A stretch of DNA of 64,000 bases from a virus (IMGVR_UViG_3300049141_000098:32001-96000); one strand, 5' to 3'; numbered from the stretch's first letter, positions 200-59,900 are shown. A program made the numbers and translations. The notes: generated by a model not told the origin, from the sequence alone.

Positions 200-296
200 T
201 CGACCCCCCAAATCTTGTTCTCGTTCTCGTGTACTTCTTGTGTGCTCTCGTCTCTTGTTCTTGTGTCTCTACAGTACCAGAAATGAGAGGAGAGGC

Positions 297-2144
297 CTAG
301 GCCGTTCTGCGACCGAACTTTGGGCGCTTCACACAGACCCAGCACTCAGGGTCGGGAGACAGTTCCGTCGCTCGCCCCGAGCGCACAACCTCAGCCAGGT
401 GAGAGGCCCTGCGAATGACCGCCTCGGCGACGTCCGGACGGTAGGGGCAAGACGCCACCCACAGGTCGGTGATGTAGTTGGAGTCGCGAGGGATGAACAC
501 CAGCACGGCGTAGTCCGCTTGACGACCCATCTTCCGCAGGCCGTACAGGTAGAGCATGGTCTGCCCCATGTACTCGGGCGGCACGCCGCCGGAGTTCGCC
601 TCAGACCGGGACAGCAGCGACGTGAGCCGGGCGAGATCGACGTCGCCAGGCTTCAGCAGACCAGCCCGGTCCCTGATCTTGAGGTCATCGAGTTCGGTCC
701 GCTCTTGTGCTGTCAGACCGAGGGTGTAGGCGTTGGGACCGGCTTGCTTCTTGTACTTCTCGATCTTCGCCTTGTCGCTGGTGTTGTGAGTCGGGATCAT
801 CCCTTCGGTGCACAGGTATGTGCTGTCAGGTGAGTCCACCTTGATGCACTGCGTGGGCACCGTCAGAGTCGGTTCAACTGACTTGATGACACGCTGCCGG
901 GCTCGCACCTCGAAACGCACGTCAACCAGGTCCGCCTTGACTGGGCTCAGGAACGGATTCAGTCCGTGCACCGGGGTGAAGGAAACCATGTAGGCCGTCA
1001 CCTCCTTCCCGAACCCCGTGCGTCGCACTTCGTTCACCACGGGGCGCTGACCAAGGCTTATGGCCAGCTCGTACACCCCGAGCGACATCCGCTTGTCAAC
1101 AGACTCGAACACCGCCTTCCGGCGCCCCTTGTTCCAGGTGCCGTCCGTGTCCATGAGGCCGCGCAGCAGGTCGAGTCGCTGCTGAATGGAGCCCCGGAAG
1201 TACCGGGGCGGAATGTGCTTGTTGTGCAGGAGGTCGCAGTCGGCCAAAAGCCCTCGCAGCCCATGGATGGTGCGGGCGCGACTGGTCTGATTGCCACTAC
1301 CCTGCGGCTTGCCGATCTGGAAGCCGCGCCCTCGGATCAACTCGAACAGGCCCTCGTCCGGCTTGCAGATCCTGGCCTCCGAGGCGTCGCCATCGCCGAG
1401 CCAGCACCCCAGGACATACGGGTCGATCGGAAGGTCGGCGTCCGGGAGTTCCAGGGCTCCGGCGTTCATCACTCGATGACGGCTTTGGCCGTTGCCCAGC
1501 TTGAGGGTTCGTCGAATCTCCTCAGTGCTGAGAACCCTCTCGGTAGCGCGGCTCCCCTCTCCGGAGGTGACGGCCCACAGGTGTTCGTCGTCGGCGACGG
1601 CCTGCTTGCCATCCTCGAACGTGATTCGGTAGCAGGTGCGGTGGTGGACTTCGGACTTGCCGAGCACCTTGCAGGGGCGCCCCTGAGAGTCGAACAGTTC
1701 GTCGCCGACCTGGATTTCACCCATGGTGGTCCAGCCGGTTGGCGTGGGCAGCTTGGTGTCGAGCGCCAAGCCCTTCCAGTCCACAACTGTGCGCTTGCGC
1801 GGAAGGAAGACGTCGGTATGCCCTTCCACCACGCCAAGGCCAGGGATGTCGCCGATGCGAACAGTGATCTCCACCTCGGCGTGCGGATAGATGCGGGGCA
1901 GCTCCCGCTCCAGCTTCTCGTGCACCGCCGTGCCGAGCCACGCTTTGAGGCTGAAGTCCTCGCTGACCTGTCCGCCCATGCCGAACGACGAGGCGATCTT
2001 CTTGGCCACGCAGACGTCGCACGTGTTCGCCAGGTCACTGGGGCCGCACGCCTTCTGCTGGTCGCGCCGAGAAGGATTTCTGATGACGGAAACCGCCAAT
2101 CCTTCGACGAAACTGCGGAGAATATTCTGTTCTTCTGCACTCAT
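297..2144 (-). CDS. Cas4-like PD-(D/E)XK exonuclease interrupted by an intein
   Basis: GPSDL..C..C, LGTAVHE, GHTD and VDWK|T (nuclease motif restored on intein removal), plus C-terminal C-x2-C. Confidence 0.85.
   Translation of the reverse strand: MSAEEQNILRSFVEGLAVSVIRNPSRRDQQKACGPSDLANTCDVCVAKKIASSFGMGGQVSEDFSLKAWLGTAVHEKLERELPRIYPHAEVEITVRIGDIPGLGVVEGHTDVFLPRKRTVVDWKGLALDTKLPTPTGWTTMGEIQVGDELFDSQGRPCKVLGKSEVHHRTCYRITFEDGKQAVADDEHLWAVTSGEGSRATERVLSTEEIRRTLKLGNGQSRHRVMNAGALELPDADLPIDPYVLGCWLGDGDASEARICKPDEGLFELIRGRGFQIGKPQGSGNQTSRARTIHGLRGLLADCDLLHNKHIPPRYFRGSIQQRLDLLRGLMDTDGTWNKGRRKAVFESVDKRMSLGVYELAISLGQRPVVNEVRRTGFGKEVTAYMVSFTPVHGLNPFLSPVKADLVDVRFEVRARQRVIKSVEPTLTVPTQCIKVDSPDSTYLCTEGMIPTHNTSDKAKIEKYKKQAGPNAYTLGLTAQERTELDDLKIRDRAGLLKPGDVDLARLTSLLSRSEANSGGVPPEYMGQTMLYLYGLRKMGRQADYAVLVFIPRDSNYITDLWVASCPYRPDVAEAVIRRASHLAEVVRSGRATELSPDPECWVCVKRPKFGRRTA
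783..1772 (-). mobile_element. Intein (330 aa) with LAGLIDADG homing endonuclease, class 3-like
   Basis: Starts GLALDTKLPTPTGWTTMGE; block B DDEHLW; LAGLIDADG motifs VLGCWLGDG and LLRGLMDTDG; ends PTQCIKV...IPTHN, followed by +1 Thr. Confidence 0.9.
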
Positions 2145-2860: not shown

Positions 2861-2927
2861 GGGCCTATCCTGGCATGGAAACGGGCTCACGCTCAGGGGA
2901 TGGCGTGGGCCCGTTTCCATGCTCCGG

Positions 2928-3623: not shown

Positions 3624-3804
3624 TCTCCTTTCCGAAAAGCCCCGTCACCGGGACTCATGAGAGCAACTCTACCATTGTGTCACGAGTTTCTGCGAAATTA
3701 TCGCAGATCACCGAGCCGACTCCCCCTGTCGTGACTGGTAGTCCACGCAGGCAGCCCGGCAAAGAGTCAGATCGCCTGCGTGGACCTGGCCTCGGCGAGC
3801 GCCG

Positions 3805-6800
3805 TCAGCCAACCGCTTCGATGCACCGGACGCCGAAAGCTCGCACGATCTCCGGCTCCACCCGATCTTTGTCTACTCGCGCGTCAAGCCGGTAGACCGT
3901 TGTCTTGCAGGGCCCGTTCACCCGAAGAAGGATGTCGGCCTCCCCCGGATGGTCGTTCAAGATCTGCTTCAGCGCCGAGACCGACTCGGGCGTGACCTTG
4001 GTCGAGGGGAACGTGATGCGAACGAGCGGGCCTCCCTCGACCTCGACGGAGGAGATGTCAAGAACCTGCACCTCCTGCCCGAACAGGCTGATGGCTCCGT
4101 CTCGCTCGTTGATCTGGCCTTGCACCGACACGACGGAGTCCTCGATCAGGACGCTGGAGGCCAGGGTGTACGCGCTGGCGAAGAAGAGGACGTCAATCTC
4201 TCCGTCTCGGTCCGCCAGGCTCACGATCGCGTAGGGCTTGCCCTTCTTTGTGACCTTGTGCTGGACGTTGGTGATCAAACCAGCCAGCCGGACGACTCCT
4301 TCCGTTCGGTCCGAAGTGAGCAGGTCGATCACCGTGCTGTCCCGGCGCTTCGAGAGGATGTGCTCCGTTCCGTCCAGGGGGTGGGCGGACACGTACAGAC
4401 CCAGCATTTCCCGCTCCAACGAGAGAAGGATCTTACGCGGCCATTCCTCCGACGAGATCTCAACTGGCAGGCCGAAGGAGACTCCACCGTCGACTCCGGT
4501 CGCTAGCTCGGAGAACAGATCGTCCTGACCGTACGATGCCGCCTTCTTTCCCGAGATTGCCGCATCGACAGCCATCTCGTACGCCGTCGACAGCCCCTTC
4601 CTGCTGTGCCCCAAGCTGTCGAAAGCACCCCCCTTGATCAGGGATTCGAGGCCCCTCTTGTTCAGTCCAGGCAGGTCCACCTTGTCGATGTAGTCCGCGA
4701 ACGACGTGAAGACGCCCTTGTCTTCCCGGGCCTTGACCACGGCCTCGATCAACCCGTCTCCGACATTGCGCACCGAGCGGAGGCCGAACCGGACGGCGTC
4801 ACCGACGGCAGTGAAGTCTCCGACAGACTCGTTGACGTCAGGAGGGAGCACCTTGATGCCCAGTCTGCGGGCATCCGCCAAGTACGTTCCAGCCTTGTCC
4901 TTGTCGTCTTCGACCGAGGTGAGCAACGCGGCCATGTACTCGGCCGGGTAGTTCGCCTTCAGATACGCGGTCCAGTACGAAATGAGGCCATATCCGGCAG
5001 TGTGGGATTTGTTGAACGCATAGCCGGAGAAGGGGAGCATGACGTCCCAGATGGCCTGTACGGCTTCGGGTGAGTATCCCTTGCCCTCCATGCCGGTGCG
5101 GAACTTGTCCCACTCGGCGGCCAACACTTCGGGTTTCTTCTTGCCCATGGCGCGGCGTAGCATGTCGGCGCCGCCGAGGGTGTATCCGGCCAGCTCTCGG
5201 GCCACCGCCATGATCTGCTCTTGGTAGACGAGCAAGTGGTGAGTGGATCCCAGGATCGGGTCGAGAACCTGCTTCAGTTCGGGGTGGATCGGCTCGGGCT
5301 TCTGCTTTCCGTTCTGGCGCAGTGCGTAGTTGGTGTGGGCGTTGGCGGCCATGGGGCCGGGTCGGTAGAGGGCAAGTGCTGCTGCAATGTCTTCGAAGCG
5401 GGTGGGCTCCATCAGCTTGAGCAGTGCGCGCATCCCGCCGCCGTCGAGCTGGAAGACGCCGAGGGTGTCACCCTTGGCGAGGAGGCCGAAGGTCTTCTTG
5501 TCGTCGAGCGGGATGACCTTCTTGTCCGGGTCCCCGTCCATGGGATCGACCGTGACGAGCTGGACATTACGGTTCTTCTTGATGATCTTCAGGGCGTGGT
5601 CGATGATGCCCAGGTTGCGCAGGCCCAGGAAGTCCATCTTCAGCAGGCCGAGCGCTTCGCATGACGGATAGTCGAAGCCCGCGATCCGCGCCCCGTCCTT
5701 GGCCCGCATGTGCAGCGGAATGCGTTCGACTAGCGGCGTCTTGGAGATGATCACAGCGGCGGCATGCACGCCAGTGTTGCGCGTCAGACCTTCGACGCCC
5801 TTGGCCGTGTCGATGATCTTCTTCACGTCCGGCTCGTTCTGGTACATCTCGCGGACGTCACCGCACTCCCCATATCGGGGGTGCTCGGGGTCGAGGATCC
5901 CGTCCAGTGGAACCGGGTTTCCATTGACGTCCGGCGGGAGCGCCTTGGTGATCCGCTCCCCCTGCTGATAGGGGAACTCCAGAATCCGCGCCGCGTCCTT
6001 GATCGCGTTCTTGGCCTTGATCTTGCCAAACGTGATCACCATCGAGGTGTATTCGGCGCCATACTTCTCAGCGACGTAGCGCACCATCTTCTCGCGCTGC
6101 CGGTCGTCGAAGTCCAGGTCAACATCCGGAGGATTGATGCGCTCCGGGTTGAGGAACCGCTCGAACAGCAGCCCCTGCTCCAGGGGGCACAGCTCGGTGA
6201 TTCGGGTGGCGTAGGCGACGATCGAGCCGGTGGCCGAGCCACGTCCGGGCCCTACCGGGATCTCGTTGTCACGGGCGTACCGGCAGATGTCCGCGACGAT
6301 GAGGAAGTACGAAGAGAAACCCATGGGGCCGATGACGGACATCTCGGTCTCGAAGCGTTGCATGACCTCCGCCGGAAGCGGCACGCCATAGCGCTTTTCC
6401 AGACCCTTCAAGCACTCCTGGCGAAGCCACTCCTCCTGAGTTACCCCGTCGGGAACGTCCGGGTAGTCCGGCATCTCGTCGACCATCGCGAAGACTTCGT
6501 CGTAGGACTCGACGCGCTCAGTGATCAGGAGAGTGTTGTCGCAGGCCTCGGGCAGCTCGGAGAAGAGGCTCCGCATCTCCTGTGCGGTCTTCAGGTAGTA
6601 GCCGGTGCCGGAGAACTTGAAGCGGTTCTCGTCCGACTTGTTCTTCCCGGTGCCAATGCACAGGAGGTTGTCGTGCGCGTCGGCCTGGCTGGCGTGAATG
6701 TAGTGGGCGTCGTTCGTCGCCAGCAGAGGGATGCCCAACTCCTTGGCCAGGCGCAGCAGGTCACCCCGAACCTGAGACTCGATGGACAAGCCGTGATCCA

Positions 6801-7398
6801 TCAGCTCCAGGAAGTAGTTCTCCTTGCCGAGGATCTCCTGGTAGGCAGCGGCCGTCTTGCGCGCTTCGTCGTACTGGCCCAGGCGCAGACGCGTCTGGAT
6901 GGCTCCGGAGGGGCAGCCGGTCGTGCCGATGATTCCCTCGGAGTGCTCGGCGATGAGTTCCATGTCCATCCGGGGCTTGCCAGCCGGGTACTGGCCTGTG
7001 TACGAGGCCTCCGTGGACAGGCGGAAGAGGTTGCGGAGCCCTCGGGCATTGCGGGCCCACATCGTCATGTGGGTGTAGCGGCCACCACCGGAGACGTCCT
7101 TGGTGGCCTCCATGTCGTCGGAGACCTGGCGCGCTCCTCCGGGGTTCCAGAACTCGCGCTTGCGGTTCAGCCGGGAGGAGGGGGCGACGTAGGCCTCGAT
7201 GCCGATGATCGGCTTGACGTCGGGGAACTTCTGGCTGGTGGAGTAGAAGTCGTAGGCGCCGAACATATTGCCGTGGTCGCTCATCGCGACGGCAGGCATC
7301 CCCTGACGGGCCACCTCTTCGAACATGGGCTTGAGCTTCTGGGCTCCGTCGAGCAGGGAGAATTCGGTGTGATTGTGCAGATGGGTAAAGCTGTCCAT
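3805..7398 (-). CDS. dnaE: DNA polymerase III alpha subunit
   Basis: PHP motifs HLHNHTEFS, SDHG, GIEAY, TNDAH; VGPGRGSATGS; PPDVDLDFD; KMDFLGLR; GYAFNKSH; C-terminal OB fold. Start taken at MDSFTH. Confidence 0.97.
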   Translation of the reverse strand: MDSFTHLHNHTEFSLLDGAQKLKPMFEEVARQGMPAVAMSDHGNMFGAYDFYSTSQKFPDVKPIIGIEAYVAPSSRLNRKREFWNPGGARQVSDDMEATKDVSGGGRYTHMTMWARNARGLRNLFRLSTEASYTGQYPAGKPRMDMELIAEHSEGIIGTTGCPSGAIQTRLRLGQYDEARKTAAAYQEILGKENYFLELMDHGLSIESQVRGDLLRLAKELGIPLLATNDAHYIHASQADAHDNLLCIGTGKNKSDENRFKFSGTGYYLKTAQEMRSLFSELPEACDNTLLITERVESYDEVFAMVDEMPDYPDVPDGVTQEEWLRQECLKGLEKRYGVPLPAEVMQRFETEMSVIGPMGFSSYFLIVADICRYARDNEIPVGPGRGSATGSIVAYATRITELCPLEQGLLFERFLNPERINPPDVDLDFDDRQREKMVRYVAEKYGAEYTSMVITFGKIKAKNAIKDAARILEFPYQQGERITKALPPDVNGNPVPLDGILDPEHPRYGECGDVREMYQNEPDVKKIIDTAKGVEGLTRNTGVHAAAVIISKTPLVERIPLHMRAKDGARIAGFDYPSCEALGLLKMDFLGLRNLGIIDHALKIIKKNRNVQLVTVDPMDGDPDKKVIPLDDKKTFGLLAKGDTLGVFQLDGGGMRALLKLMEPTRFEDIAAALALYRPGPMAANAHTNYALRQNGKQKPEPIHPELKQVLDPILGSTHHLLVYQEQIMAVARELAGYTLGGADMLRRAMGKKKPEVLAAEWDKFRTGMEGKGYSPEAVQAIWDVMLPFSGYAFNKSHTAGYGLISYWTAYLKANYPAEYMAALLTSVEDDKDKAGTYLADARRLGIKVLPPDVNESVGDFTAVGDAVRFGLRSVRNVGDGLIEAVVKAREDKGVFTSFADYIDKVDLPGLNKRGLESLIKGGAFDSLGHSRKGLSTAYEMAVDAAISGKKAASYGQDDLFSELATGVDGGVSFGLPVEISSEEWPRKILLSLEREMLGLYVSAHPLDGTEHILSKRRDSTVIDLLTSDRTEGVVRLAGLITNVQHKVTKKGKPYAIVSLADRDGEIDVLFFASAYTLASSVLIEDSVVSVQGQINERDGAISLFGQEVQVLDISSVEVEGGPLVRITFPSTKVTPESVSALKQILNDHPGEADILLRVNGPCKTTVYRLDARVDKDRVEPEIVRAFGVRCIEAVG

Positions 7399-7450
7399 CG
7401 AACGCCTCCGAGTCGTCACGAAGGGGTCAAGATACCGACCCACCTCACGT

Positions 7451-7460
7451 GGCCTAGGCC
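7451..7460. promoter_or_regulatory. GGCCTAGGCC operator at the dnaE promoter
   Basis: Abuts minus-strand -10 TAGACT (7461-7466). Confidence 0.65.
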
Positions 7461-7529
7461 AGTCTACAGGCTTTACCCCACTGATACACCCCCAGATCTA
7501 CCTCCCATTTGGTCCGTAGAGTGGGAAAC

Positions 7530-8429
7530 ATGGAGATCGTAAACGTCATCGCCTGGCGCAGACCCGACTTCCTCCTGGCCATGCTGATGCGGCTCGCCAA
7601 AGCCGACACGCCGGGGATCCACTATCGGGTCAACGTCGACCACGACCCGGACCCGCTGGTGCCGGAGGTGGCCGACCGGTTCTCCTGGAACGTCGGCCCC
7701 AAGCGGGTCGAAGTGGTGTACCGAGGCCCGTGCGAGGACCAGGGGCCTACACGGAACATGCTCCAGGCGCTGCATGAATCCATGAACTACGGCGCCGACT
7801 TGATCCACTTGATCGAAGACGACATCTTCGTCTCCACCGGGTACTTCACGTACCACCGCAGCGCCCACGAGCTGGCTCCGGACGCCTTCTGTGTGACCGC
7901 ATGCAAGCCGGACCTGGACGCCACCCCGACGAGTCCGCAGAGCTTCCGTCAGGCCACCCTGCGGCCCTTTGCCCCAACGGTCGGGACCAGCTTCCGGCCC
8001 GAGCGCCTACGGCAGATCCTGGACTACCTGCCCATGTCCTATCTGGAGGACCGGGTCGGGCATTTGCGCCGGACTTTCCCCCAGCACCCCTGCGCCCCGC
8101 ACCTGTGGAGCGGAATCGACGGGGCCATGGGGCGGGTGCGCCATCGCCTCGACAAGCTCACGGTCTTCCCCGAGATCGGACGCGCCTATCACGCAGGGTT
8201 CATCGGGGCGGGATGTGAGGGCGAGGCCTGCAACGGAGACACCGCGCGGGACGGGTACAACAACGGCCCGCACCGCCACGGCGCCGGACTGACCGGGACG
8301 GTGGCGGAGCGGGCCGCTCAACTGCTGAAGATGCGCGCCGAGGACTTTAACGCGCGAGCCGGGATCCGGGATCACGTCTGGTTCGACCCGGACGTGGACT
8401 ACGGACCAGTGACCGCGATCGCCCCCTAG
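7530..8429 (+). CDS. GT-A fold glycosyltransferase
   Basis: IAWRRPDFL start, HLIEDDIFVS (DxD-type), PEIGRAYHAG; divergent from dnaE. Confidence 0.7.
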   Translation: MEIVNVIAWRRPDFLLAMLMRLAKADTPGIHYRVNVDHDPDPLVPEVADRFSWNVGPKRVEVVYRGPCEDQGPTRNMLQALHESMNYGADLIHLIEDDIFVSTGYFTYHRSAHELAPDAFCVTACKPDLDATPTSPQSFRQATLRPFAPTVGTSFRPERLRQILDYLPMSYLEDRVGHLRRTFPQHPCAPHLWSGIDGAMGRVRHRLDKLTVFPEIGRAYHAGFIGAGCEGEACNGDTARDGYNNGPHRHGAGLTGTVAERAAQLLKMRAEDFNARAGIRDHVWFDPDVDYGPVTAIAP

Positions 8430-8435
8430 CGGGGG

Positions 8436-8672: not shown

Positions 8673-8721
8673 GCGGCTCCTTTCGCTCACATGTCTCGCC
8701 GGGCCCGAGGAGAGCCCCGGG

Positions 8722-8940: not shown

Positions 8941-8941
8941 C

Positions 8942-10341: not shown

Positions 10342-10379
10342 AGACTTCTTCCCTTCCGGTGATCTCTTCTGGATCTGAG

Positions 10380-11997: not shown

Positions 11998-12023
11998 TGG
12001 TTTCTTTCCTTTCCGTTGCAGTA

Positions 12024-12305: not shown

Positions 12306-12313
12306 GGATCCCC

Positions 12314-17253: not shown

Positions 17254-17796
17254 CTACTCTGCCACGTCCTTTTCCAATGCGGAACTGATCAGATCCAGTT
17301 GACGAAACGCCAAGGTGAGAACGACCTCCCCGAGAGAGCCCAAGCCCAAGACTCGCTGCGCCTTCTTCAGATCTGCACTTCTCTCATGCACGAGTTGCTC
17401 GAATTGAATCTGCTTCTTCGCTAGGGCCACGACGTCGTTCATGGATTCCAAGCCCGCGCTACTTGCCGCCTTGCGGACCTGAACCTGCTCCATCGCCAGC
17501 GGCACAAGTTCGTCCGTAGATTCAAAACCTGCACCACTCGCGGCTGCTTCAAGACTGCTCTGCTTCTTTGCCAGGACGATCAGTTCGTCCACGGACGCCG
17601 ATGCATCGGCTCTGGAGCTTACGATCTCTTGAACTTGACACTGCCTCAGGGACAGGGCCCTGATCACATCCACCTCGTACTTGAGGCCCAACTCCTTCTG
17701 CGCCTCTTTGATTTGATGCATCTCCGTCGGAGTCCATCGGATAGCGGTTCGTTCACTACGGACCTCTGCGTCCGACTCCCTGCTTCGTCCAGCCAT
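17254..17796 (-). CDS. Repeat-containing helical protein, possibly ribbon-helix-helix-like
   Basis: TAIRWTPTE strand followed by repeated helical units; RBS AGGAGGGG before ATG at 17796. Confidence 0.55.
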   Translation of the reverse strand: MAGRSRESDAEVRSERTAIRWTPTEMHQIKEAQKELGLKYEVDVIRALSLRQCQVQEIVSSRADASASVDELIVLAKKQSSLEAAASGAGFESTDELVPLAMEQVQVRKAASSAGLESMNDVVALAKKQIQFEQLVHERSADLKKAQRVLGLGSLGEVVLTLAFRQLDLISSALEKDVAE

Positions 17797-17895
17797 GCCC
17801 CCTCCTTCCTGGTGGCCTAGGTCAATCATACGCACGAATGGCAGCCATTCGCAATGGCTGCCATTCAAGGGATGCGACCCAGCCCCCCGGGAGGT

Positions 17896-20273: not shown

Positions 20274-20879
20274 CTACAGGCCAACTCGCGTGGCCCCGTA
20301 GTAGTCAGGCATGTAGTGGACCTTGTCGACTCGGATGAGGGTGCCGGTCCGGGGGGCGTGCAGCATCTTCCCGTCGCCTACATAGATGCCCACATGGTGA
20401 ATCGACCGCCAGTTGCCCTTCTGTCCGAAGAACACCAGGTCGCCCGGTTGCAGCTCGTTCCAAGCGGGGTGGACGTCGGTCGTCTTGTACTGGTCATTGG
20501 CCACGCGAGGCAGCCTGACGCCAGCTTTCGCATACGCCGCCTGGGTCAGCCCTGAGCAGTCGAACCGGCCGCCCTGGGCCGACGAACCCGTGCCGCCCCA
20601 GAGGTAGGGCACGCCAATCTTCGTCTTGGCGTATGCGATGGCCACGGCTGCGGCATCCCCCGAGCGGGAGCGGGAGACGCTTGAGGCGTCCTCCTCCTGC
20701 TGATCGGCTTCCTGCCGCCGCCTCTCCGGGGAGTACCAGTTGACCTCCTCGATCGCCGGGTTGTCGTTGGCCTTAGCGTTCGAGATGGGTGCGGCTTTGA
20801 GGGCCGCGCAGGACGTCATGATGGGCGTGAGTAGGGCCGCCGAAGCGACTGCGGCGATCACGCGCGGGGCTCGATTCAC
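20274..20879 (-). CDS. NlpC/P60 cell-wall peptidase (secreted or lipoprotein)
   Basis: PYLWGG, FDCSGL, LPRVANDQY, PGDLVFF, HHVGIYVG; N-terminal signal with TSC. Confidence 0.92.
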   Translation of the reverse strand: MNRAPRVIAAVASAALLTPIMTSCAALKAAPISNAKANDNPAIEEVNWYSPERRRQEADQQEEDASSVSRSRSGDAAAVAIAYAKTKIGVPYLWGGTGSSAQGGRFDCSGLTQAAYAKAGVRLPRVANDQYKTTDVHPAWNELQPGDLVFFGQKGNWRSIHHVGIYVGDGKMLHAPRTGTLIRVDKVHYMPDYYGATRVGL

Positions 20880-21511
20880 CGCTCGTACTTCCTCGTCTTC
20901 CGCTCGATCATCTTCACGTACGTGTAGGTCTCGCAGTTAGCGAAGGAGCAGGGCGGGACGCCGCCGTACTGCTTCACCCGGAAGCCGCCCGCGTTGTATC
21001 CGGCGAGCATGTTCTTCCAGGTCGGGCCCGGCACGTCCTTCAAGCCCTTGGCCAGCTTGCAGTCGAACGTGGCGGCAGACGGGATGGCATCTTCGGGGTC
21101 GTACTTGTTTCTCTTGCCGTCCCCGTTGGCGTCGATCCCCTCCGTAGCCCAGGTCGAGTCGATGAACTGAGCCATACCCTTGGCGGAGGCCGGGGAGTTC
21201 AAGCGCCCGTCGATGACCTCCGGCTTGAAGTTCATGCTTTCCTGCTCAAGCTGGGCCGCGAGCAGTGCAGGGGTTAGCGTCTTGCACTTGTTGCCCCACT
21301 TGTTCACCAGCTCTTCCCACCGCTTCTTCGGCAGGGATCCTTCGCGGATCTGGGCACTGGAGCCAGTGAACTTGTAGCCCTGTTTTGCCTCAGGCTTCGC
21401 GACTGGAACCGCGTTTGCGGCGGACGGCACTGCCGGGATGAAACCTGTGATTGCCTGCACCGCTCCCGTGGCCAAGAAGATGCCAACGAAGGCGCCTCCA
21501 GCCCTACGCAT
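20876..21511 (-). CDS. Lytic transglycosylase (SLT/lysozyme-like)
   Basis: LLAAQLEQES, SPASAKGMAQF..STW, YDPEDAI, LAGYNAG, ET..YV; N-terminal signal/TM segment. Confidence 0.88.
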   Translation of the reverse strand: MRRAGGAFVGIFLATGAVQAITGFIPAVPSAANAVPVAKPEAKQGYKFTGSSAQIREGSLPKKRWEELVNKWGNKCKTLTPALLAAQLEQESMNFKPEVIDGRLNSPASAKGMAQFIDSTWATEGIDANGDGKRNKYDPEDAIPSAATFDCKLAKGLKDVPGPTWKNMLAGYNAGGFRVKQYGGVPPCSFANCETYTYVKMIERKTRKYER

Positions 21512-21551
21512 TCCCTTCTCCTTTCCTTGTAGCTGACACCACCATAACAAC

Positions 21552-21561
21552 GGCCTAGGCC
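21552..21561. promoter_or_regulatory. GGCCTAGGCC operator in the promoter spacer of the SLT/NlpC operon
   Basis: Within TTGTTA-18-TATGGT on the minus strand. Confidence 0.65.
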
Positions 21562-21673
21562 ATTTAACAAGGTGGTTCAGCACGGGACTTGAGGCAAGGA
21601 GGGTTTCCAGGCCGGGCCGGGAAACGCCGAAGCGGCTCACCTCCGCGAGGGAGGCGAGCCGCTTCGAAGCCGT

Positions 21674-23436: not shown

Positions 23437-23652
23437 ATCTCTCCCTCCCGATGAGGAGTTTGGCCAGAAGTCCTTCCGATACCCTGCTCACGGATTGGCC
23501 TAGGCTGGCGATACCCTGGAGAGGGTCAGTCCGTGAGAGGAGGTCGAACTTCGTCTGGAGCCCCGGAAGGTTCCAGTTCCTCCTCGTTTGCCATGCTGTG
23601 CGACGTCTGCCCTTCTTCGGCTGGCGTCGCGGACTCCAGCATGACACAATTC

Positions 23653-23662
23653 GGCCTAGGCC
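23653..23662. promoter_or_regulatory. GGCCTAGGCC operator upstream of the GntR gene
   Basis: In the divergent intergenic region, overlapping TTGTGG-17-CATGCT (minus). A second near-copy lies at 23497-23506. Confidence 0.65.
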
Positions 23663-23685
23663 ACAAGTAGAAGTGAGGAGAGAGC

Positions 23686-24420
23686 GTGAGCGAGCAAATC
23701 CCCAAGTTCCGGTCTATCGCGCAGAAGTTGAGGTCTCAGGTGACCTCCGGAGCGCTGGCGCCCGGTACCCCCCTCGCGTCGCGTCGAAGGCTTGCGAAGG
23801 ATTTCCAGACGTCGCGCGTCACGATCGACAAGGTCGTTGAGCTGCTGACAGCGGAAGGAGTTTTCGAGCCTTCCGACGGCAATCGACCACCAGTTGTTGC
23901 GGATATCTCGCAACGAGTCGTCAGCGTGCAGGACCGGGTGGACAGTCATGCCACCAACGGTCGGGCGTTGCGAGCCAATGAGGTCTCGAAGATCTTGTCG
24001 GTCGAGAAGACGCCATGCCCAGCCGACATCGCCCCCTTGCTCGGCGTCGCTCCGGGCAAGGAGGTTCTTTGCCGAACCCGACTGAACCTGGTCGACGACC
24101 ATCCGGATGCCACGGGCTACTCCTACTACCCACCGGAGGTGGTGGAGTTGGTGCCGGAGCTGGCACAGCCCGAATCCCTCCCCGAGGGCTCCCGGGAGTT
24201 GGTGAGCGAACGCATGGGGTCCCGGCAGAAGTACCGAAGGGACATCGTCACGTCTCGTCTGGCCACCGATCGGGAGCGTGAACTTCTCCAGTTGGGTGGC
24301 ACCTTGAATGTCGTGACACAGGACATGCGCCATGTGACCCTGGCCAACGGCAAGGTCATCGAGGTGGCCGTAAAGATCACCGAAGGAAACCGTCCGATCT
24401 CGTTTCTCTCGGAGCTGTGA
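23686..24420 (+). CDS. GntR-family (HutC/UTRA) regulator, KorSA/TraR-like
   Basis: N-terminal wHTH PKFRSIAQKLRSQV.SG.LAPG..L.SRR.LA..FQTSRVTI; C-terminal UTRA-like domain; divergent from the membrane/hydrolase operon. Confidence 0.88.
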   Translation: MSEQIPKFRSIAQKLRSQVTSGALAPGTPLASRRRLAKDFQTSRVTIDKVVELLTAEGVFEPSDGNRPPVVADISQRVVSVQDRVDSHATNGRALRANEVSKILSVEKTPCPADIAPLLGVAPGKEVLCRTRLNLVDDHPDATGYSYYPPEVVELVPELAQPESLPEGSRELVSERMGSRQKYRRDIVTSRLATDRERELLQLGGTLNVVTQDMRHVTLANGKVIEVAVKITEGNRPISFLSEL

Positions 24421-28089: not shown

Positions 28090-28151
28090 CTTGCCGTTTC
28101 TCCCTCTTTCCGAAAGTGCCCGTGGGGGCGACATGCACGACTTTTCCAGAT

Positions 28152-28161
28152 GGCCTAGGCC
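28152..28161. promoter_or_regulatory. GGCCTAGGCC operator upstream of the spd-like gene
   Basis: One base from minus-strand TTGACA (28163-28168). Confidence 0.65.
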
Positions 28162-28334
28162 GTGTCAAGCGAACCTGGAAAAGTTCGTTCCAGAAGACGT
28201 TCTGTCCGTTTCGCTAGCTTCGAAGGGGTTAGCGGCGTCTTGCGGTGCCTCAATGCACCCCTTCGTCCGTTTCACCCACTGAACCACCTATCTTCTTTCG
28301 GCAGGTTCCAGTGAGATGGAAGCCCTTCCGTCTC

Positions 28335-32737: not shown

Positions 32738-32752
32738 AGCCCTCCCTTTCGT

Positions 32753-32762
32753 GGCCTAGGCC
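32753..32762. promoter_or_regulatory. GGCCTAGGCC operator upstream of the SLOG gene
   Basis: Just downstream of minus-strand -10 TATGCT (32764-32769). Confidence 0.65.
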
Positions 32763-33091
32763 GAGCATACCCTGCGGCCTACCCGTTTAGGTAGGCCACT
32801 TTCCGATGTCCGTTTCGCCCGTTTCAGAACGATCGCGAATCGGTCGAAGCTGCACAAACCACCCGAGACGACCACCCTTTGCCCGTATTGCGCTGATTCG
32901 ACGTCCGAAGTAACCCTTCGTCAGAGGTCGACCCTCTTCATGCGGTCCGTTTCATACCTTTCGTTCCCTACCCTTCGGTAGCTTCTCTTCCAGAGTTCGC
33001 TGAGCTTCCAACGTTCTTCGCGTTACCTCCGGGTAGCTTCTCGGCACTTCCAGGTGGAAGTGAAGCTACCGATCGGTAGTCGCGTGAGCCG

Positions 33092-41745: not shown

Positions 41746-42392
41746 CAGGCCTCACCATCCACCATCTGCTGGAGGTCGCCCAGGAGGTCTGGGTTGACGA
41801 TCTCCAGGATCTGGGCGACCTCGAAGGGCTCGACAGCTTTCCAGAGGATTTCGCGCGCCTTGCCGTAGCGGGCGAGGCGCCCCGCGTTTCCGTCGGGGAG
41901 CTTGGCCGCGCGGTCGACTCGGCTGTTGTGGGCGTTGTCGGCGATCTTCAGCAGCGTCGCCTCGCGATCCTGTGAGATCTTGCAGATGCGGTCCATGTAG
42001 TTCTCGCCGGGCACCTTGGAGACCAGCTCGACGATCCGCACCACCCGGCTCTCGATACCAGCCCCCCGCAGACCTTCGGCGGTCCACTCGGTGTCCTCGA
42101 TCACGTCGTGCAGCAGGCCCGCCATCTGGAGCCGGGTGCTGAACGGCTCCAGACCGGCAGCCACCGCGCGCACGTGCTCGATGTAGGGCACCCCACCCTT
42201 GTCCATTTGCCCCTCGTGCGCCTTCTCGGCGAACTGGTCGACCTCGATGAGCGAGGCCATCTTCTGTGCCACGGTCTCGATGTCGAAGCCGAAGTTGACG
42301 TCGGGGCAAGCGTCATAAATCTCTTCGCGGACCTGCTCCTCGTTGATTCCGTCAGCGGCCTCGACTCGCATCAGAACTTCGTAGACCTTCAC
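41742..42392 (-). CDS. HD-domain phosphohydrolase (RelA/SpoT hydrolase, SAH/Mesh1-like)
   Basis: FAEKAHEGQ.DK.G.PYIEH, GLLHDVIEDT, KIADNAHN. Confidence 0.88.
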   Translation of the reverse strand: MKVYEVLMRVEAADGINEEQVREEIYDACPDVNFGFDIETVAQKMASLIEVDQFAEKAHEGQMDKGGVPYIEHVRAVAAGLEPFSTRLQMAGLLHDVIEDTEWTAEGLRGAGIESRVVRIVELVSKVPGENYMDRICKISQDREATLLKIADNAHNSRVDRAAKLPDGNAGRLARYGKAREILWKAVEPFEVAQILEIVNPDLLGDLQQMVDGEAW

Positions 42393-42814
42393 GCTTCTCT
42401 TTCCCTTTCCGTTTCACACACGTGCTCTTCCGTGACCCTGTTCAGCTCAGCGAAGTCGACATCCTCAGGCGACCTGAGCAGAGTGGTATCGCACCGTTGG
42501 CAGACGAGGGCGATACGCTTCGCGTAAAGCCAGAACTGAGGCACCTCGTTCACGTCGTCGTTTCCGACCACTCCCTTGCGCGACAAGGGGTCCGCAACGA
42601 CTGGAGGTGCGTTCTCCTTCAGCTCCAGAAGCCCCTCAGTCGCCAAGATGGCCCACGCTCTATCGATATTGATGCGGGTCATCCCGTAAACCTGCGCAAT
42701 GTACCGGGCTGGTTCGAGGTGAATTCCGGGCTCAAGCTCACCAGACAGGATCTTCTCCCGGTATACATTCGCCAGGGCTTCCCACTTCGGAACTTGGGGG
42801 TTCAAGTTGGACAC
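42389..42814 (-). CDS. GntR-type wHTH protein
   Basis: PKWEALANVYREKILSGELEPG.....IAQVYG.TR..I.RA..IL..EGLL. Confidence 0.7.
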   Translation of the reverse strand: MSNLNPQVPKWEALANVYREKILSGELEPGIHLEPARYIAQVYGMTRINIDRAWAILATEGLLELKENAPPVVADPLSRKGVVGNDDVNEVPQFWLYAKRIALVCQRCDTTLLRSPEDVDFAELNRVTEEHVCETEREREA

Positions 42815-43170: not shown

Positions 43171-43574
43171 CTCTTCAGCTTCCTCACCGCTTCAGCGATG
43201 TCCCCATCCAAGGTGTAGGCATGTCGTCGGTAACCCGACATGGAACCGAACGGAAACCAGTACTTCCTAGGCAAGTGCCTTTTGGCCGCCGCGCCGACGC
43301 TGTTGGTGATACCGGACAGAGTGTGCGAAGCGCCTGGTGGGATTTCCAAAGCTTCCATGACCTGATCCTTGGTCATGGTGTACTGGTCGGCATGAGACAA
43401 AAGGACCACCATCTGGTCACCCGGCTTCTTCATGGCTGCCAGCCAATGAGTCAGATGTTTGCGCATAAGGGCTCCATCTCCTGGCTCGCCTGAAGCTCCA
43501 TAAATGGCGCGGAGCTGCTGGAGGACGTCTTCGTAGCGGTCAACCGCTGTGTCGAATTCAATGCTGTGCCTCAT
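43167..43574 (-). CDS. Hypothetical protein
   Basis: 135-aa ORF coupled to the helicase. Confidence 0.55.
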   Translation of the reverse strand: MRHSIEFDTAVDRYEDVLQQLRAIYGASGEPGDGALMRKHLTHWLAAMKKPGDQMVVLLSHADQYTMTKDQVMEALEIPPGASHTLSGITNSVGAAAKRHLPRKYWFPFGSMSGYRRHAYTLDGDIAEAVRKLKS

Positions 43575-45307
43575 GCCGCCTCTTCATCCTTTTTCACGTC
43601 GTCCATGTAGATCGAGCCCATGCGGGCTCGCTTCTTCAGGTTGTTCAGGTACACCTTGTCGTCGATGGTGCCCTCGGTGACGAGGCGCCATCGCTGGACT
43701 GGGGACGTCTGACCAGGCCGATGTAGGCGCCCTTCAGCCTGTTGGTTCATGACCTCGTCCTCCGTGCATGACGCGATCACTTCGCAGCGGCACGCGTGCT
43801 TGAGCCAGTCCACTCCGGTCGAGAGCGACTGGAGCTGAGCTATGAGGACGCGCCACTGCGTGCCGAACCCGCCCTCGATCTTCCGACGCTTGGCGTCCGT
43901 GGTGCTCGACGTCCAGGACACTGCCTTGGATCCCAGCTTCTTCTCTGCCATCCGGGCCCACTTCGCCGAGTGGGTCCACACGAGGAGAGGCTCGCCCTCC
44001 GGCAGGTCCGCGAGGATATCCTTGATGGCCTCCAGCTTGGGCTGCTCAGCCGCCTCCTCGTAGGAGATGTCCGGGTCTTCGAGGGTGATGTCCTCAGACT
44101 CGATCCCCTGCTTCAGCTTTTCCTGCTTCTTCAGCATCCGGAGGAACTGAGACTCCAGTAGATGTCGCTCCCCCCGGGCCAGCTTGCTGTTGTGGACGCG
44201 AACGAAGTCTCCCCAGGCAGAACTCTCGCGGGGCCGACTGTCCTGATACTCCTTCCACGCCTCCAGAATCCCCCTTTCGGCCCGCGAGAGCCTGTAAGAG
44301 ACGCGCTTGACGTCTTCCTCGGCCTTGAGGGTCCCCAGGGCCGCCTGACGAAGCCTGATGCGCTGCTCGATCGGAAGAGGAGTGGCCACTGGCTGATCAC
44401 TCAGCCACGCCAGACACTGCTCCTCGAAGTCCAGGTACTGCTCTTCCTGCCCCGGCGCCATCGGCACCGTCACGATCCGCTCAACAACCGGCGGAAGCTG
44501 GTCGTACACCTCCTCGGTCCGGAAGCGGACGACCGCAGGGATGTCGCTCCATACGCTGCCAGGCCGTCGCTCTGCCCCGATCTTGCGCACAGGAGCCGGA
44601 GCCCCGCGCACCACTTCTTCCTTGACGTGGAAGTGCTCGTAGATCCAGTCCCACCGATTGGCATACTTGTCGGGCCACAGGGTGTTCAGGACAGCCCACA
44701 ACCCTTCGGGGCTATTGCCGCCGGGTGTAGCTGACAGTCCGAGCTTCTGAGCCGCCTTGATGAGCTTCAAGACGTGATACGGGACACCCTGGTGGTTGCA
44801 GGCGCGGTGCACCTCGTCGAGTATCGCCACATCCCAGGTGCCGGTCCTAGTCCACGGAGGCACATAGCCCTTGGATATCGCTGCCCGCACGGCCGCCATG
44901 GTGACCTTTGGCTTGCTGCGATTGGCGTTCCTGCCTCGGGATCCCCCGCGCCGGACCTCGTCCGGCACAGCGCCGTGCATGGCCTCCCAGCCGATGATGT
45001 AGACCCCTGGGCGCTTCTTGGTCATGAGCGCCCACGTCTCGGGGTCCTTGAGGGGCGTGCCGACTACGTGGACCAGCTTCTTCGTCTGGAGGGAGGGGTA
45101 CTGCTCGATGAAAGTGGTCTCCCACTGCCGGAGTGTGGTGATCGGGGCGACAACAAGAATGCGGGGCGCTCCGCCGAGCACCGGCTTCACGGACCGGCAT
45201 GCCGCAACGCTGATGAGCGTCTTGCCAGCCCCGAGGCCAGAGGCGTTGAGCCCGCCTTCGGCCAGGATCTCGACGGCCTCTTCCTGGTAGGGCCGGAGCA
45301 CCTTCAT
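43571..45307 (-). CDS. SF2 SNF2-like helicase
   Basis: LRPYQEE, GLGAGKT, ILDEVH, GLSATP.GN, TGVD, QAEGRLHRPGQ. Confidence 0.9.
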   Translation of the reverse strand: MKVLRPYQEEAVEILAEGGLNASGLGAGKTLISVAACRSVKPVLGGAPRILVVAPITTLRQWETTFIEQYPSLQTKKLVHVVGTPLKDPETWALMTKKRPGVYIIGWEAMHGAVPDEVRRGGSRGRNANRSKPKVTMAAVRAAISKGYVPPWTRTGTWDVAILDEVHRACNHQGVPYHVLKLIKAAQKLGLSATPGGNSPEGLWAVLNTLWPDKYANRWDWIYEHFHVKEEVVRGAPAPVRKIGAERRPGSVWSDIPAVVRFRTEEVYDQLPPVVERIVTVPMAPGQEEQYLDFEEQCLAWLSDQPVATPLPIEQRIRLRQAALGTLKAEEDVKRVSYRLSRAERGILEAWKEYQDSRPRESSAWGDFVRVHNSKLARGERHLLESQFLRMLKKQEKLKQGIESEDITLEDPDISYEEAAEQPKLEAIKDILADLPEGEPLLVWTHSAKWARMAEKKLGSKAVSWTSSTTDAKRRKIEGGFGTQWRVLIAQLQSLSTGVDWLKHACRCEVIASCTEDEVMNQQAEGRLHRPGQTSPVQRWRLVTEGTIDDKVYLNNLKKRARMGSIYMDDVKKDEEAA

Positions 45308-47513: not shown

Positions 47514-47537
47514 GTTTCTTCTCCCCTTTCCGCTCCG

Positions 47538-47882
47538 TCAGAGGACGGAGAAGAGCCCGTCCTCGGGCTCCTTTTCCCTTTCGGGCTGTTCCATGGCGAA
47601 CATGGCCATTTGATCCTGGTGGCCGCCCGGTTGCTCTCCACCTCGGTCGATCAGCTCCCAGTGAGATGCCGGATCGCTGAGGCCAAGACGGGCGGCCAGC
47701 CATGCCCGCAGCCCGGGTACCTGCTCCAGGGTCCACAGCGGCCGGTTGCCCTTGGGTCCCAGTACGCCAACGGGGAGAGGGAAGTGCGCGGTGGGGCTGT
47801 TAGACCAGCCGACCACTTCGTTCCACTTCACACCGAGGAACCGCGCCACGTCACTTGCGTCTAGGTATCGAACGACCCGCAT
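47538..47882 (-). CDS. Excisionase/MerR-like HTH protein
   Basis: YLDASDVARFLGV...V..W....FP.P...LWT.EQV. Confidence 0.65.
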   Translation of the reverse strand: MRVVRYLDASDVARFLGVKWNEVVGWSNSPTAHFPLPVGVLGPKGNRPLWTLEQVPGLRAWLAARLGLSDPASHWELIDRGGEQPGGHQDQMAMFAMEQPEREKEPEDGLFSVL

Positions 47883-47900
47883 GGCATTCCCTCCCTGTAC

Positions 47901-56835: not shown

Positions 56836-56976
56836 GAGCGCGAGCACCGTGGGGGTTGGTGCTCTCATCCCCGGCTCCAGGAGACTTACGAAAAGAGTAC
56901 GGCAGACTCGTCCTCTTTTGGGGAGGATTCGAGTAACAAAAATGCCTTCGGGGATAACCCGTTTCGTGCAGGATCC

Positions 56977-59900
56977 TCAGAAGTACGTAGTGATGATCGC
57001 GATCCCGTTGCCGCCATTGCCCCCCGCCCCCGAGGTGTTGCCGTTGGCTGCGGCCCCTCCGCCGCCGCCTCCGCCGCCGTAAAGGGCACCGTTTGCGCCT
57101 GCCTGCGCGGCTGCCGTGGTGGAACCCGCTCCGCCGCCTCCGCCGCCGCCGGAGGCCCCTGAACCAGCCGTTGCATCAGCAGGGGCTGTGGGGTTGGCGC
57201 CACCGACTACGCCTGCCGCACCGGACTGGTTGGCCACGTTGCCGCCGCCTGCACCGCCGTTCGATGCGGCGTTACCGGAGGTGATTCCTCCGCCAGCACC
57301 TCCACTTCCGCCCGGGAGGACGCCCGGGTTTCCGGCAGCTCCGGCCCCACCTGTCGTCGAAGCATTGCCTCCGGACGGTCCCGTGGAGGTGCCGACGCCG
57401 CCGCCGCCGCCCGCCCCCGCCGTTGCGGTACCGGCTGCGCCTCCGTTGCTCTGCCCCGTGCGGGCGTAAGAGCCGAAGCTGCTCGCACCTCCTACGCCGC
57501 CCGCAGCACCGTCGGTGTCGTCGGTCGCTCGGGCAGCTCCACCCGCTCCACCGGTGCCGACGGTCACAGCGACGGTGGCCGTGAGCAACGAGGCCTGGAT
57601 CTGAGCCTGGAACGCGCCACCACCTGCCCCTCCTCCGCCGCCGCAGCGCACGGTTCCTGCCGCCCCTCGGCGACCTGAGCCGCCGCCCCCACCACCCGAG
57701 ATCAGATGCACGAGAACCATGGTGGCCCCTGCGGGCTTGGTCCAGGTACCGGACGCGGTGAAGACCTGCACGTCTGGGGTTCGCGAGAGCGGGCCTACCC
57801 TGCCGTCGGCCTGGCGTGCCTTCAGAATGCCGCCTTCGGAGTAGAGGATCACCCCGGCGGTGGGATTGGTGGTCGGGGCGGTTGCCACGTCCTTCATGCT
57901 GATCACGGCCCCGGAGGAACCGCCGAGATCGGCGGACGTCGTCCCGAGCTGGATGGGTGAAGTGAAGAAGGCGATCGCACGGTGGACAGAGGAGCCGTTG
58001 GCCACGACCTCAAAGCGAGGGTTGCCTGCGGAGTCCTGAAGCATGAGGAGCTGCTGCGCAATGGCGGAGTTCGCTTTGACGAACAAGCCAACGGTGCCGT
58101 CGTCGTTCTGGACTATCTCCAGTTTGCCGTTGGGGTTCCCAGCGATAGGTGTGCCCAGGCCCAGGCGCCCGTTGGCACGCAGGACGAGGTCTTCCCGGCC
58201 GGGGTTGTTGCGGAAGACCGCGAGGCTTCCCGTGGTGGGGGTGCCGGTGGCCGTGACGAAGAGCCCCTGGGCGGCCGTGCCCAGTTCGCTTCCATCGGGC
58301 GCCTTCGAGGACAGATCGAGCGACAGGATCGCCGCAGCCCCGTCACCCGTGGCAGTACCGCTGCCGTTGATGTGGGAGATCTTCAGCGTGCCGCGATCTT
58401 TCTCCCGGCCGCTGATCTGAACGGCCGACATGCCCGGGTTGTCACTGATCGCGTTGATCGCGCTGTTGGTCGTGCCGGAGGTGGCCGCCATGTAGGCAGT
58501 GAGCGCATGGGCGCCGCTCGTCGCCGTCGACTTGGCGAACAGGGCCTGGATGCCCGCCACGTCCACGCGCAGTTGCCCGGTGAGGGTGGCGCCTGCGGTG
58601 GTCACGACCGGATCTCCGGCGGCCCCTCCTCCCTTGTTACTGCGTACGAGAGTGCCGGGTGCGTTCAGATCCAGGGCGCCGACGGCGAGGGATCCCTTGG
58701 TGATGAGGATGTTCCCGATGATGGAGTTGTCGCCGGAGCCGCCGATGGATTCCTCGCGGATCAGGGACCGTGCCGCTCCGACCGCCGTGGCCGAGGCGAT
58801 CGAGTTGGCCTCGATGAGGTTGCCGGTGGCCGCCCATTCCAAGTGGATGCCGGAGTAGGCACCTGCCGTGCCGATCTCGCCGACCCCAAAGATGGTGTTG
58901 CTGGTGATGACGCAGTTGCTGGCCGCGATGAACACGGCGTCACCGCCGACACCGTCGAAGTTGCAGGAGCTGATCTTCGTGGCCGAGCAGTCCTGGATGC
59001 GGACGGCGGGCATCGAGTTTCCGCCGTTGACGAAGTTGCAGCCCAAGACAGTCTGCGTCCCGGCCTGGTCATAGATGCCTGCGCCCTGGGCGGTTGCTCC
59101 GCCGAGGTACTGAAAGTCGCAGGAGATGATGAAGTTCTCGTCGTTGCTCTGCGTTCGGATGCCCCGGCCTGCACCTGGGCTGGTCATCGCGTTGTCGAAG
59201 AGGCACTGGAGAACGTGGTTGTTGTGGCCGAAAGCGTTGTCGGCCTGAGGGCCGAGGTAGAGGCCGGTGTCGTAGCAGGCGGTCAGGTGCAGGTGGTTGA
59301 AGACGCACTCGACGGCGCCCGGGGCCCAGATGCCGCCGCCTGCGGTCTGGTGAGTGTGGTTGCCGTCGATGGTGAAGTCGGAGAACAGGGCGCGGGTCTC
59401 ACCGGGTCCGGCAAAGGTGATGGCGTAGACGTTTGCGTTGTCGGCGACCTTCAATACGGTGCCCCACCCCGAACCCACCAGGCCTAGGCCGACGCCATTG
59501 GGTATGGAGAGAGTGGCCCCCAGGTTGAAGGTGCCGTCGAGCAGGCGGACCTTGCCCTTGCCGGGGGCCGCGTTCACCTCGTCGATGGCCGACTGGATCA
59601 CGAGATGGTCGTTCGTCCCTGTGCAGACCAGGTCGGCGTTGCGGCTGGAGCGTGAGTCCGAGGCGGCGATCACGATCTCGGAGGTGGGCGCCTGGGTGCG
59701 GGTGAGCGTCGCCGTGGTGCCGGTGGCGTAGGTGACGTTCGCGCCGAGCTTCAGGGTCTCGTTGGCCCCGGCGTCATGCAGGGCTTCGGTGGCCGCGTGC
59801 AGATAGGCGTTGTCGATCTGCACGTGATCGCAGTTGTTGAAGCTGCCACCGCAGTCCGGGGAGTTCACCGCCGTACCGTCGTCGTCGACTCCGGGGAAGT

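Follow-up and report, generated by a model that had tools for sequence, protein, structure and literature searches.

A conserved 12-bp palindrome is the likely operator of a phage-encoded HutC-type GntR repressor in large phages related to cluster BM

We analyzed a stretch of 64,000 nucleotides (nt), in the following called the window, which comprises bases 32001-96000 of the 259,646-bp virus record IMGVR_UViG_3300049141_000098. The record has direct terminal repeats. Positions refer to the window unless given as genome positions. A palindromic 12-mer, YGRCCTAGGYCR, recurs in this DNA, and a gene at 23686-24420 is predicted to encode a regulator with a GntR and a UTRA domain. With a probability of about 0.7, we consider the 12-mer to be the operator at which the product of 23686-24420, a HutC-type GntR protein encoded by the phage, acts as a repressor. 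From the patterns described below we infer that this protein is the binder, that it represses by binding and that a ligand acts on it. The original prediction for this DNA had described the decamer contained in the 12-mer, GGCCTAGGCC, as the element-wide operator of a GntR/UTRA regulon.

The decamer is present in nine exact copies in the window, at 294, 7451, 21552, 23653, 28152, 32753, 47901, 55818 and 59481, all at the positions predicted. Dinucleotide-preserving shuffles yielded 0.06 copies on average (maximum, 1), which agrees with the predicted chance expectation of well below one. Near copies exist at 17814 and 51585 (GGCCTAGGTC) and at 23497 (GGCCTAGGCT), likewise as predicted, and 12 of the 37 CTAG tetramers in the window belong to the motif or its near copies. 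All seven intergenic exact copies have a pyrimidine (Y) at the -1 flank and a purine (R) at the +1 flank. The two A-flanked copies, 294 and 59481, are the ones at the end of and within genes, respectively, as had been noted.

Extending the analysis to the entire genome, we found 31 GRCCTAGGYC sites, with T in 37, C in 23, A in 2 and G in 0 of the 62 half-sites at the -1 flank. Beyond this flank no position is conserved, and the same is seen in the Streptomyces phages Satis and Kela. Given the near-absolute -1 flank and the lack of conservation beyond it, it is the 12-mer YGRCCTAGGYCR, wider than the decamer, that forms the functional unit. The Y/R flank lay outside the search pattern, yet it is near-absolute in all three phages. 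The exact decamer occurs 20 times genome-wide compared to 4 times for a reversed control. For a one-sided variant (GACCTAGGCC/GGCCTAGGTC) we counted 11 occurrences, for the double variant none; the G to A change at the second G thus affects one half-site only, never both.

Full 12-mers number 29 in the genome, and 28 of them are intergenic; non-coding DNA makes up 16% of the genome. Placement in coding or non-coding DNA was assigned with a codon-bias gene caller retrained to reproduce the Satis annotation. Versions of the 12-mer with one mismatch are only mildly enriched between genes (4/13 in the phage), therefore selection acts on the full site. The first 32 kb of the genome, which hold the tape measure gene, are free of sites, and the sole site in the tail-fiber region is the genic copy lacking a proper flank. 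The only full 12-mer inside a coding region is located outside the window (genome 230726), within the GntR-like gene 230504-231481. This gene gives the strongest Pfam GntR match of the genome, and the 12-mer lies just past the region encoding the winged helix.

A palindrome that contains AvrII (CCTAGG) and HaeIII (GGCC) sites could also be a mark for restriction or methylation, a recombination signal or an RNA hairpin. We regard this as exceedingly unlikely, since restriction pressure depletes such sites, and here they are instead enriched, intergenic and coupled to promoters. As an RNA, the motif would form a weak hairpin, with a stem of 4 bp and a CUAG loop. The hairpin was also rejected on the basis of the variants: depending on the transcript, the one-sided G to A change yields a G-U pair or an A-C mismatch, it is not oriented with transcription, and no stem is preserved.

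To relate the sites to promoters, the 43 sites of the three phages that each precede a single gene were oriented by that gene, with the antisense strand serving as a control of the same flank composition. Two registers were recognized. In register A, a sense-strand TAnnnT ends 0-2 nt ahead of the decamer (18/43 sites; control, 0). In register B, TAnnnT starts 2-9 nt past the decamer (14/43 sites; control, 4). The background rate of TAnnnT is 0.0038 per position. In register A, often only a ribosome-binding site fits between the 12-mer and the start codon (15 nt at 32753, 18 nt at 47901), which would put the transcription start inside the site or next to it. Sites of register B occupy the spacer, and some are immediately preceded by TTGACA or TGACAC (28152; genome 106766 and 111113). 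The claim that the sites overlap the -35/spacer region or the transcription start is supported by the two computed registers. The predicted restriction to leftward promoters applies within the window; beyond it, rightward genes are served as well. Many sites lie past a terminator-like hairpin that belongs to the gene before and therefore mark separate transcription units. A stringent sigma-70 scan of 16.5 kb detected two promoters, one of them abutting the site at 17814, and was too strict for use on the genome.

The tight coupling of the palindrome to -10-like hexamers would also be expected of a promoter element recognized by a phage sigma factor or RNA polymerase, or of an activator site. 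Both are very unlikely in our view. The coupling takes two different forms, downstream of the -10 hexamer and inside the spacer; the palindrome is perfect and used in either orientation; no sigma-70 region 2 was found encoded in the phage genome; and activators usually bind upstream of -35. The occurrence of one palindrome in two registers and both orientations favors a repressor-operator relationship, in which the sites would be promoter-overlapping and operator-like rather than elements for polymerase recognition.

The element itself shares short stretches of 78% identity with the Streptomyces phages Satis, Kradal, Kela and JustBecause, all members of cluster BM, which comprises siphoviruses with prolate heads and genomes of >180 kb (PMC6687918, PMC10652959). 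About half of the ~420 predicted genes of the 259,646-bp phage have homologs in Satis or Kela, and genes for a tape measure protein (genome 12197-17446) and for minor tail proteins are present. Because of the terminal repeats, the tape measure and minor tail genes and the kinship to cluster BM, we classify the element as a very large tailed phage, distantly related to this cluster, and not as a conjugative plasmid. The link to plasmid transfer drawn in the original prediction was therefore not supported, and with a tailed phage there is no basis for the single switch linking replication and transfer that it had proposed.

The sites are conserved throughout this group of phages. Exactly 15 copies of the 12-mer were found in each of Satis, Kela, Frankenweenie and four metagenomic relatives from IMG/VR, compared to 0-3 copies of the reversed pattern in the five relatives in which it was counted. 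Nearly all sites in these BM-type relatives are intergenic (15/15 in Satis, 14/15 in Kela). Cluster members share only ~74% nucleotide identity, yet the count of 15 is fixed in every BM-type genome checked, which points to a core regulon that is stable. Of the 15 Satis sites, ten lie in front of orthologs of site-bearing genes of the phage, with protein identities of 33-77%. In a relative with 80% identity (L045), 20.7 kb were scanned and all five sites match those at 17814, 21552, 23653, 28152 and 32753. Compared to Satis, the network appears roughly doubled in the 259,646-bp phage. The added sites include those at dnaE (7451), upstream of a DnaB-like helicase gene and just past the primase gene (genome 106766 and 111113). 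Taken together, the site-bearing promoters serve non-virion genes, namely dnaE, dnaB, a wall hydrolase gene, tRNAs and many small genes.

The product of 23686-24420 matches Pfam GntR (PF00392) with 32.9 bits at a cut-off of 27, indicating a GntR-type winged helix-turn-helix, and Pfam UTRA (PF07702) with 52.9 bits at a cut-off of 23.8, indicating the C-terminal effector domain. With phmmer, it matches the DNA-binding domains of YvoA and DasR. An AlphaFold2 model (predicted local distance difference test, pLDDT, 89) returned GntR/HutC proteins as all of its best 50 PDB matches, led by DasR and YvoA/NagR. Compared with the effector domains of DasR, YvoA, PhnF, YydK and HutC, the model reached target-normalized template modeling scores of up to 0.86. 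Every sequence and fold test thus assigns the regulator to the HutC subfamily of the GntR family.

In the crystals of NagR with DNA, Arg38 reads G-5, Arg48 reads G-4 and the minor groove is contacted by Gly69 of the wing; six bases separate the half-sites, and contacts at positions -3 to -1 are made through the backbone only (PMC4333415). Arg34, Arg44 and Gly65 of the phage regulator align with these three residues, and their equivalents are conserved at 100%, 98% and 91%, respectively, in 64 homologs with 40-100% identity. The 12-mer, written Y G R C C T | A G G Y C R, has exactly the GG-N6-CC geometry. At the level of sequence the sites therefore resemble HutC operators in being palindromic, with G-rich half-sites six bases apart and a TA center, and in occurring at the promoter of the regulator itself. 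The UTRA domain is well conserved, with Arg130, Arg132 and residues 168-173 invariant or nearly so, which makes a small-molecule effector plausible. Taken alone, this domain has diverged too far to be matched to NagR by sequence.

The site is closely linked to the regulator gene. In 11/11 BM-type relatives examined, a 12-mer lies 22-23 nt upstream of the start of the regulator ortholog, which in Satis is gp101. It is part of a block of ~48 nt (23621-23667) that is nearly invariant across 10 aligned phages and has variable flanks. Even a homolog of 44% identity from another phage, with unrelated flanks, keeps CGGCCTAGGCCA, there 6 nt before TAGACT. Of the two sites predicted in the intergenic region of the regulator, the one at 23653 was substantiated in this way. 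The one at 23497 was not, as it carries a mismatch at G-5 and is missing in all aligned relatives. Homologs of 37-42% identity on chromosomal or plasmid-like contigs (P0066, P0067, P0069 and P0070) have Gly, Gln, Asn or Thr at the position of Arg44 and lack the motif, and in P0069 and P0070 other upstream repeats take its place. Upstream of distant homologs on two plasmid-like contigs, we noticed repeated GGTAGAGCA or GGTAGAACA words without a palindrome (L036 at ~760-850, L037 at ~2880-2990). These homologs have WhiB and ParA neighbors and lack the Arg44 equivalent. Another GntR/UTRA gene, very divergent (~26% identity), is located at 10807-11541 of L045, convergent to the conserved one.

A host protein of the HutC type, DasR or a relative, could also bind the sites, so that the phage would read the amino-sugar or nutrient state of the host through the host's own regulator. 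The 12-mer matches 10/12 positions of the DasR dre core TGGTCTAGACCA and differs at -3/+3 only, the T at -3 being replaced by C in both half-sites. The resemblance to dre with two symmetric differences was thus correctly predicted, and the differences fall into the part of the half-site that NagR contacts through the backbone. We nevertheless consider a host binder quite unlikely. The phages bring their own conserved HutC protein with a site on its own promoter, and the two symmetric departures from dre are fixed: all sites counted in the three phages have C at -3 and G at +3. In 61 Streptomyces genomes (5.5-12 Mb), the 12-mer occurs 0-4 times each, compared to 1-63 for controls, which argues that no general host regulon uses it. 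A DasR dre regulon was rejected on these grounds.

One of the 61 Streptomyces genomes offers an independent chromosomal case. Three copies of the 12-mer and one related CTAG 12-mer lie within 85 bp (L050, 5614-5697), 8-80 nt upstream of a chromosomal gene for a GntR and UTRA protein and divergent from methyltransferase and UDP-glucose dehydrogenase genes. Orthologs of this regulator in seven other genomes (53-88% identity) mostly have CTAG-centered TGnnCTAGnnCA 12-mers at the same position; one ortholog site reads TGACCTAGGCCA. Because a cellular GntR/UTRA gene and its orthologs carry the same or related 12-mers, the phage palindrome belongs to a recognizable class of HutC operators. The regulators of this clade keep the first arginine and have Val at the Arg44 position, and their sites keep G-5 and vary at -4, a combination that fits the NagR way of reading the DNA. 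The locus appears to be a cellular HutC regulon that has not been described. In 2/151 Streptomyces genomes, this very site accompanies a chromosomal HutC regulator, which speaks for a host binder. Three other Streptomyces genomes have single TGGCCTAGGCCA sites; no GntR/UTRA gene is present within 5 kb of them, and they appear to be chance occurrences.

Several observations weigh against the product of 23686-24420 as a ligand-responsive repressor acting on these sites. Since the cellular clade has Val in place of Arg44, the reading of guanines by arginines is not the whole of the specificity. Of the phosphate-binding arginines of NagR, the first is kept (Arg132), but the second (NagR Arg135) is replaced by Asn134 in the full-length alignment. 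The promoter positions are defined by -10-like hexamers only, and repression rather than activation is argued from the position of the sites only. The sequencing runs listed for this DNA were DNA runs from soil and rhizosphere metagenomes, with no RNA run among them. Furthermore, a site in front of a GntR gene would be equally expected if this gene were a mere member of the regulon of another protein, and the phage encodes five further GntR-like winged-helix matches. One of these, of interest in this respect, is encoded at 42389-42814 on the minus strand. It has 141 amino acids and consists of a GntR winged helix, which shares 36% identity with the DNA-binding domain of the regulator at 23686, and a Cys-containing tail without UTRA. 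It keeps the equivalents of both Arg34 and Arg44 and could compete for the same operators.

It is conceivable, then, that another phage protein binds the operators and that the GntR/UTRA gene is merely one of its targets, given that a gene preceded by a site need not encode the binder, that the phage shares other helix-turn-helix proteins with BM phages and that Satis has several such proteins annotated, among them gp152, gp173 and gp218. We judge this unlikely. The geometry and class of the sites (TGnnCTAGnnCA, GG-N6-CC) are those of HutC proteins (PMC4333415), and an unrelated cellular GntR/UTRA gene bears the same 12-mer in its promoter region. The winged-helix protein at 42389, which had also been suggested for binding assays, has no ortholog in Satis or Kela, each of which keeps the motif with 15 sites. 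As the only GntR-family protein common to the phage, Satis and Kela, and with the site kept upstream of its gene, the product of 23686-24420 is the best candidate, in line with the original prediction.

In the mechanism we propose, a dimer of this regulator would place its two winged-helix domains on the GG dinucleotides of half-sites six bases apart. The site would lie over the transcription start past the -10 hexamer or fill the -35/-10 spacer, and the bound dimer would keep host RNA polymerase off ~28 promoters in the phage; in BM phages it would bind 15 sites. Through the site at its own promoter the regulator would limit its own level, and a small molecule acting through the conserved UTRA domain would release it from the DNA. 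Such repression would fit an early shut-off in lytic growth, suiting BM phages without integrase or ParA, and in the larger phage it would fit the maintenance of a quiescent state. The phage has a tyrosine integrase gene (genome 239185-240291, outside the window) and a gene for a ParA-type ATPase (37438-38334, plus strand). No match to either was found in Satis or Kela, which keep the operator network nonetheless. The relative with an 80%-identical regulator (L045) is located on a 253-kb contig within the assembly of a cultured Streptomyces isolate. Together, the integrase, ParA and this contig hint at possible carriage as a prophage or phage-plasmid.

More tentatively, UTRA might turn the regulator into a master switch that is gated by a metabolite, in a jumbo phage or a phage-plasmid, with a host small molecule that reports the nutritional or cell-wall state freeing ~30 promoters at once and thereby deciding between quiescence and lysis or setting early timing. 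This is possible, though doubtful. It would represent a chemically inducible alternative to prophage induction of the SOS type, and if UTRA senses a metabolite, the phage would read host physiology through a HutC regulator of its own.

Like the phage regulator, DasR of Streptomyces and NagR/YvoA of Bacillus, its best PDB matches, combine a GntR winged helix with UTRA. The dre operators and the phage sites are both 12-bp, CTAG-centered palindromes with GG-N6-CC geometry that overlap core promoters. The phage regulator differs in being phage-encoded, in its predicted control of phage promoters and in the Asn at the second phosphate-binding arginine. In natural NagR sites one half-site is often degenerate (PMC4333415), and this is also true of the phage sites.

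Other repressors of actinobacterial elements resemble the system in its layout. Repressor c of phage phiC31 is an autoregulated Streptomyces phage repressor that binds many near-identical intergenic inverted repeats genome-wide. With many near-identical intergenic sites and one at the gene of the repressor itself, the network described here has the same arrangement at the sequence level. It differs in that repressor c belongs to an unrelated family, has a longer repeat and no effector domain, and comes from a 41-kb temperate phage. The stoperators bound by gp71 of mycobacteriophage L5 are dozens of near-identical repressor sites across the phage genome. They are asymmetric, oriented with transcription and stop elongation inside transcription units, whereas the sites considered here are palindromic and lie on core promoters. 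The Kor/TraR proteins of the Streptomyces plasmids pIJ101, pSAM2 and pSN22 are GntR-family repressors that control transfer and spread genes. They likewise act on the genes of the actinomycete mobile element that encodes them, but these are plasmid transfer genes, in contrast to the tailed phage here. Distant homologs of the regulator (37-41% identity) adjoin ParA and WhiB genes on plasmid-like contigs; these plasmid-like homologs lack the motif and Arg44.

In the literature search, the decamer was found in no relevant paper, the genome announcement of Satis and JustBecause mentions no motif, and nothing equivalent was found for phage-encoded GntR repressors. The network is thus conserved in a group of large phages, and we found no description of it in the searchable literature. 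Very little is known about gene regulation in large actinophages; what the analysis adds is a defined cis element together with a named candidate for its regulator and 15 promoters that form a conserved core regulon. Satis and Kela grow on laboratory Streptomyces strains, so that element and regulator are directly testable there. With 0-4 sites per Streptomyces genome, the operator-repressor pair is essentially orthogonal to these genomes and could serve as a clean expression switch in the engineering of Streptomyces.

The sites in the window are listed in Table 1. Of the targets named in the original prediction, we found sites at dnaE, the SLT-type wall hydrolase gene, the SpdB-like gene 26974-28089, the tRNA promoter and the small DNA-binding protein gene. 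The TraB-like block was not found; the gene at 43571-45307 encodes an SNF2 helicase.

Table 1. Regulator gene and copies of the motif in the window (a dot indicates that no strand applies)
Feature	Position	Strand	Basis or location	Adjacent sequence and conservation
Regulator gene, GntR/UTRA (HutC-type), 244 amino acids, proposed repressor	23686..24420	+	Pfam, AlphaFold2 model, alignment	
Predicted operator CGGCCTAGGCCA at the regulator's own promoter	23652..23663	.	23 nt before GTG start	-10-like hexamer CACAAT, preceded by TGA, ends 2 nt ahead of site
Predicted operator TGGCCTAGGCCA	7450..7461	.	Between dnaE 3805-7398 (-) and divergent 7530-8429	Intergenic; TAGACT abuts on dnaE side; dnaE identified by Pfam
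Predicted operator TGGCCTAGGTCA	17813..17824	.	17 nt upstream of gene 17254-17796 (-)	TTGCGA-18-TATGAT ends 1 nt ahead (sigma-70-type scan); orthologous site kept in L045
Predicted operator CGGCCTAGGCCA	21551..21562	.	40 nt upstream of SLT/endolysin-like gene 20876-21511 (-)	TATGGT begins 5 nt past site; gene is a PHROG endolysin match, with site-bearing orthologs in Satis, Kela and L045 (Satis/Kela proteins 77% identical)
Predicted operator TGGCCTAGGCCG	28151..28162	.	62 nt upstream of gene 26974-28089 (-)	TTGACA 1 nt ahead, placing site in -35/-10 spacer; site and TTGACAC context kept in Satis, Kela and L045 (Satis/Kela proteins 43-44% identical)
Predicted operator TGGCCTAGGCCG	32752..32763	.	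15 nt upstream of YspA/SLOG-family gene 32258-32737 (-)	TATGCT ends 1 nt ahead; only a ribosome-binding site separates site from start codon; orthologous sites in Kela and L045
Predicted operator CGGCCTAGGCCA	47900..47911	.	18 nt upstream of small DNA-binding protein gene 47538-47882 (-)	TAGACT abuts; gene is a PHROG DNA-binding protein match; Satis/Kela orthologs (48-50% identity) have TAAGCT abutting the same 12-mer
Predicted operator TGGCCTAGGTCA	51584..51595	.	125 nt upstream of tRNA-Met 51385-51459 (-) and tRNA-Arg	TTGACC overlaps site; TAAAGT after 18-nt spacer
Predicted operator TGGCCTAGGCCG	55817..55828	.	Between divergent 55492-55758 (-) and 55911-56294 (+)	Intergenic; TTGAC abuts on minus side; TAGCCT 6 nt away on plus side
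Weak/doubtful copy TGGCCTAGGCTG	23496..23507	.	60 nt upstream of gene 22477-23436 (-)	One mismatch, at otherwise invariant G-5 of one half-site; stretch missing in nine aligned relatives
Copy AGGCCTAGGCCG without Y flank, function doubtful	293..304	.	Overlaps stop codon of open reading frame 297-2144 (-)	
Copy AGGCCTAGGCCG without Y flank, probably not an operator	59480..59491	.	Inside minor tail protein gene 56977-61026	

The open reading frame 297-2144 (minus strand), whose stop codon is overlapped by one of the A-flanked copies, comprises 615 amino acids. It has weak LAGLIDADG and homing-endonuclease matches at residues 318-373, which suggests an intein or an inserted endonuclease.

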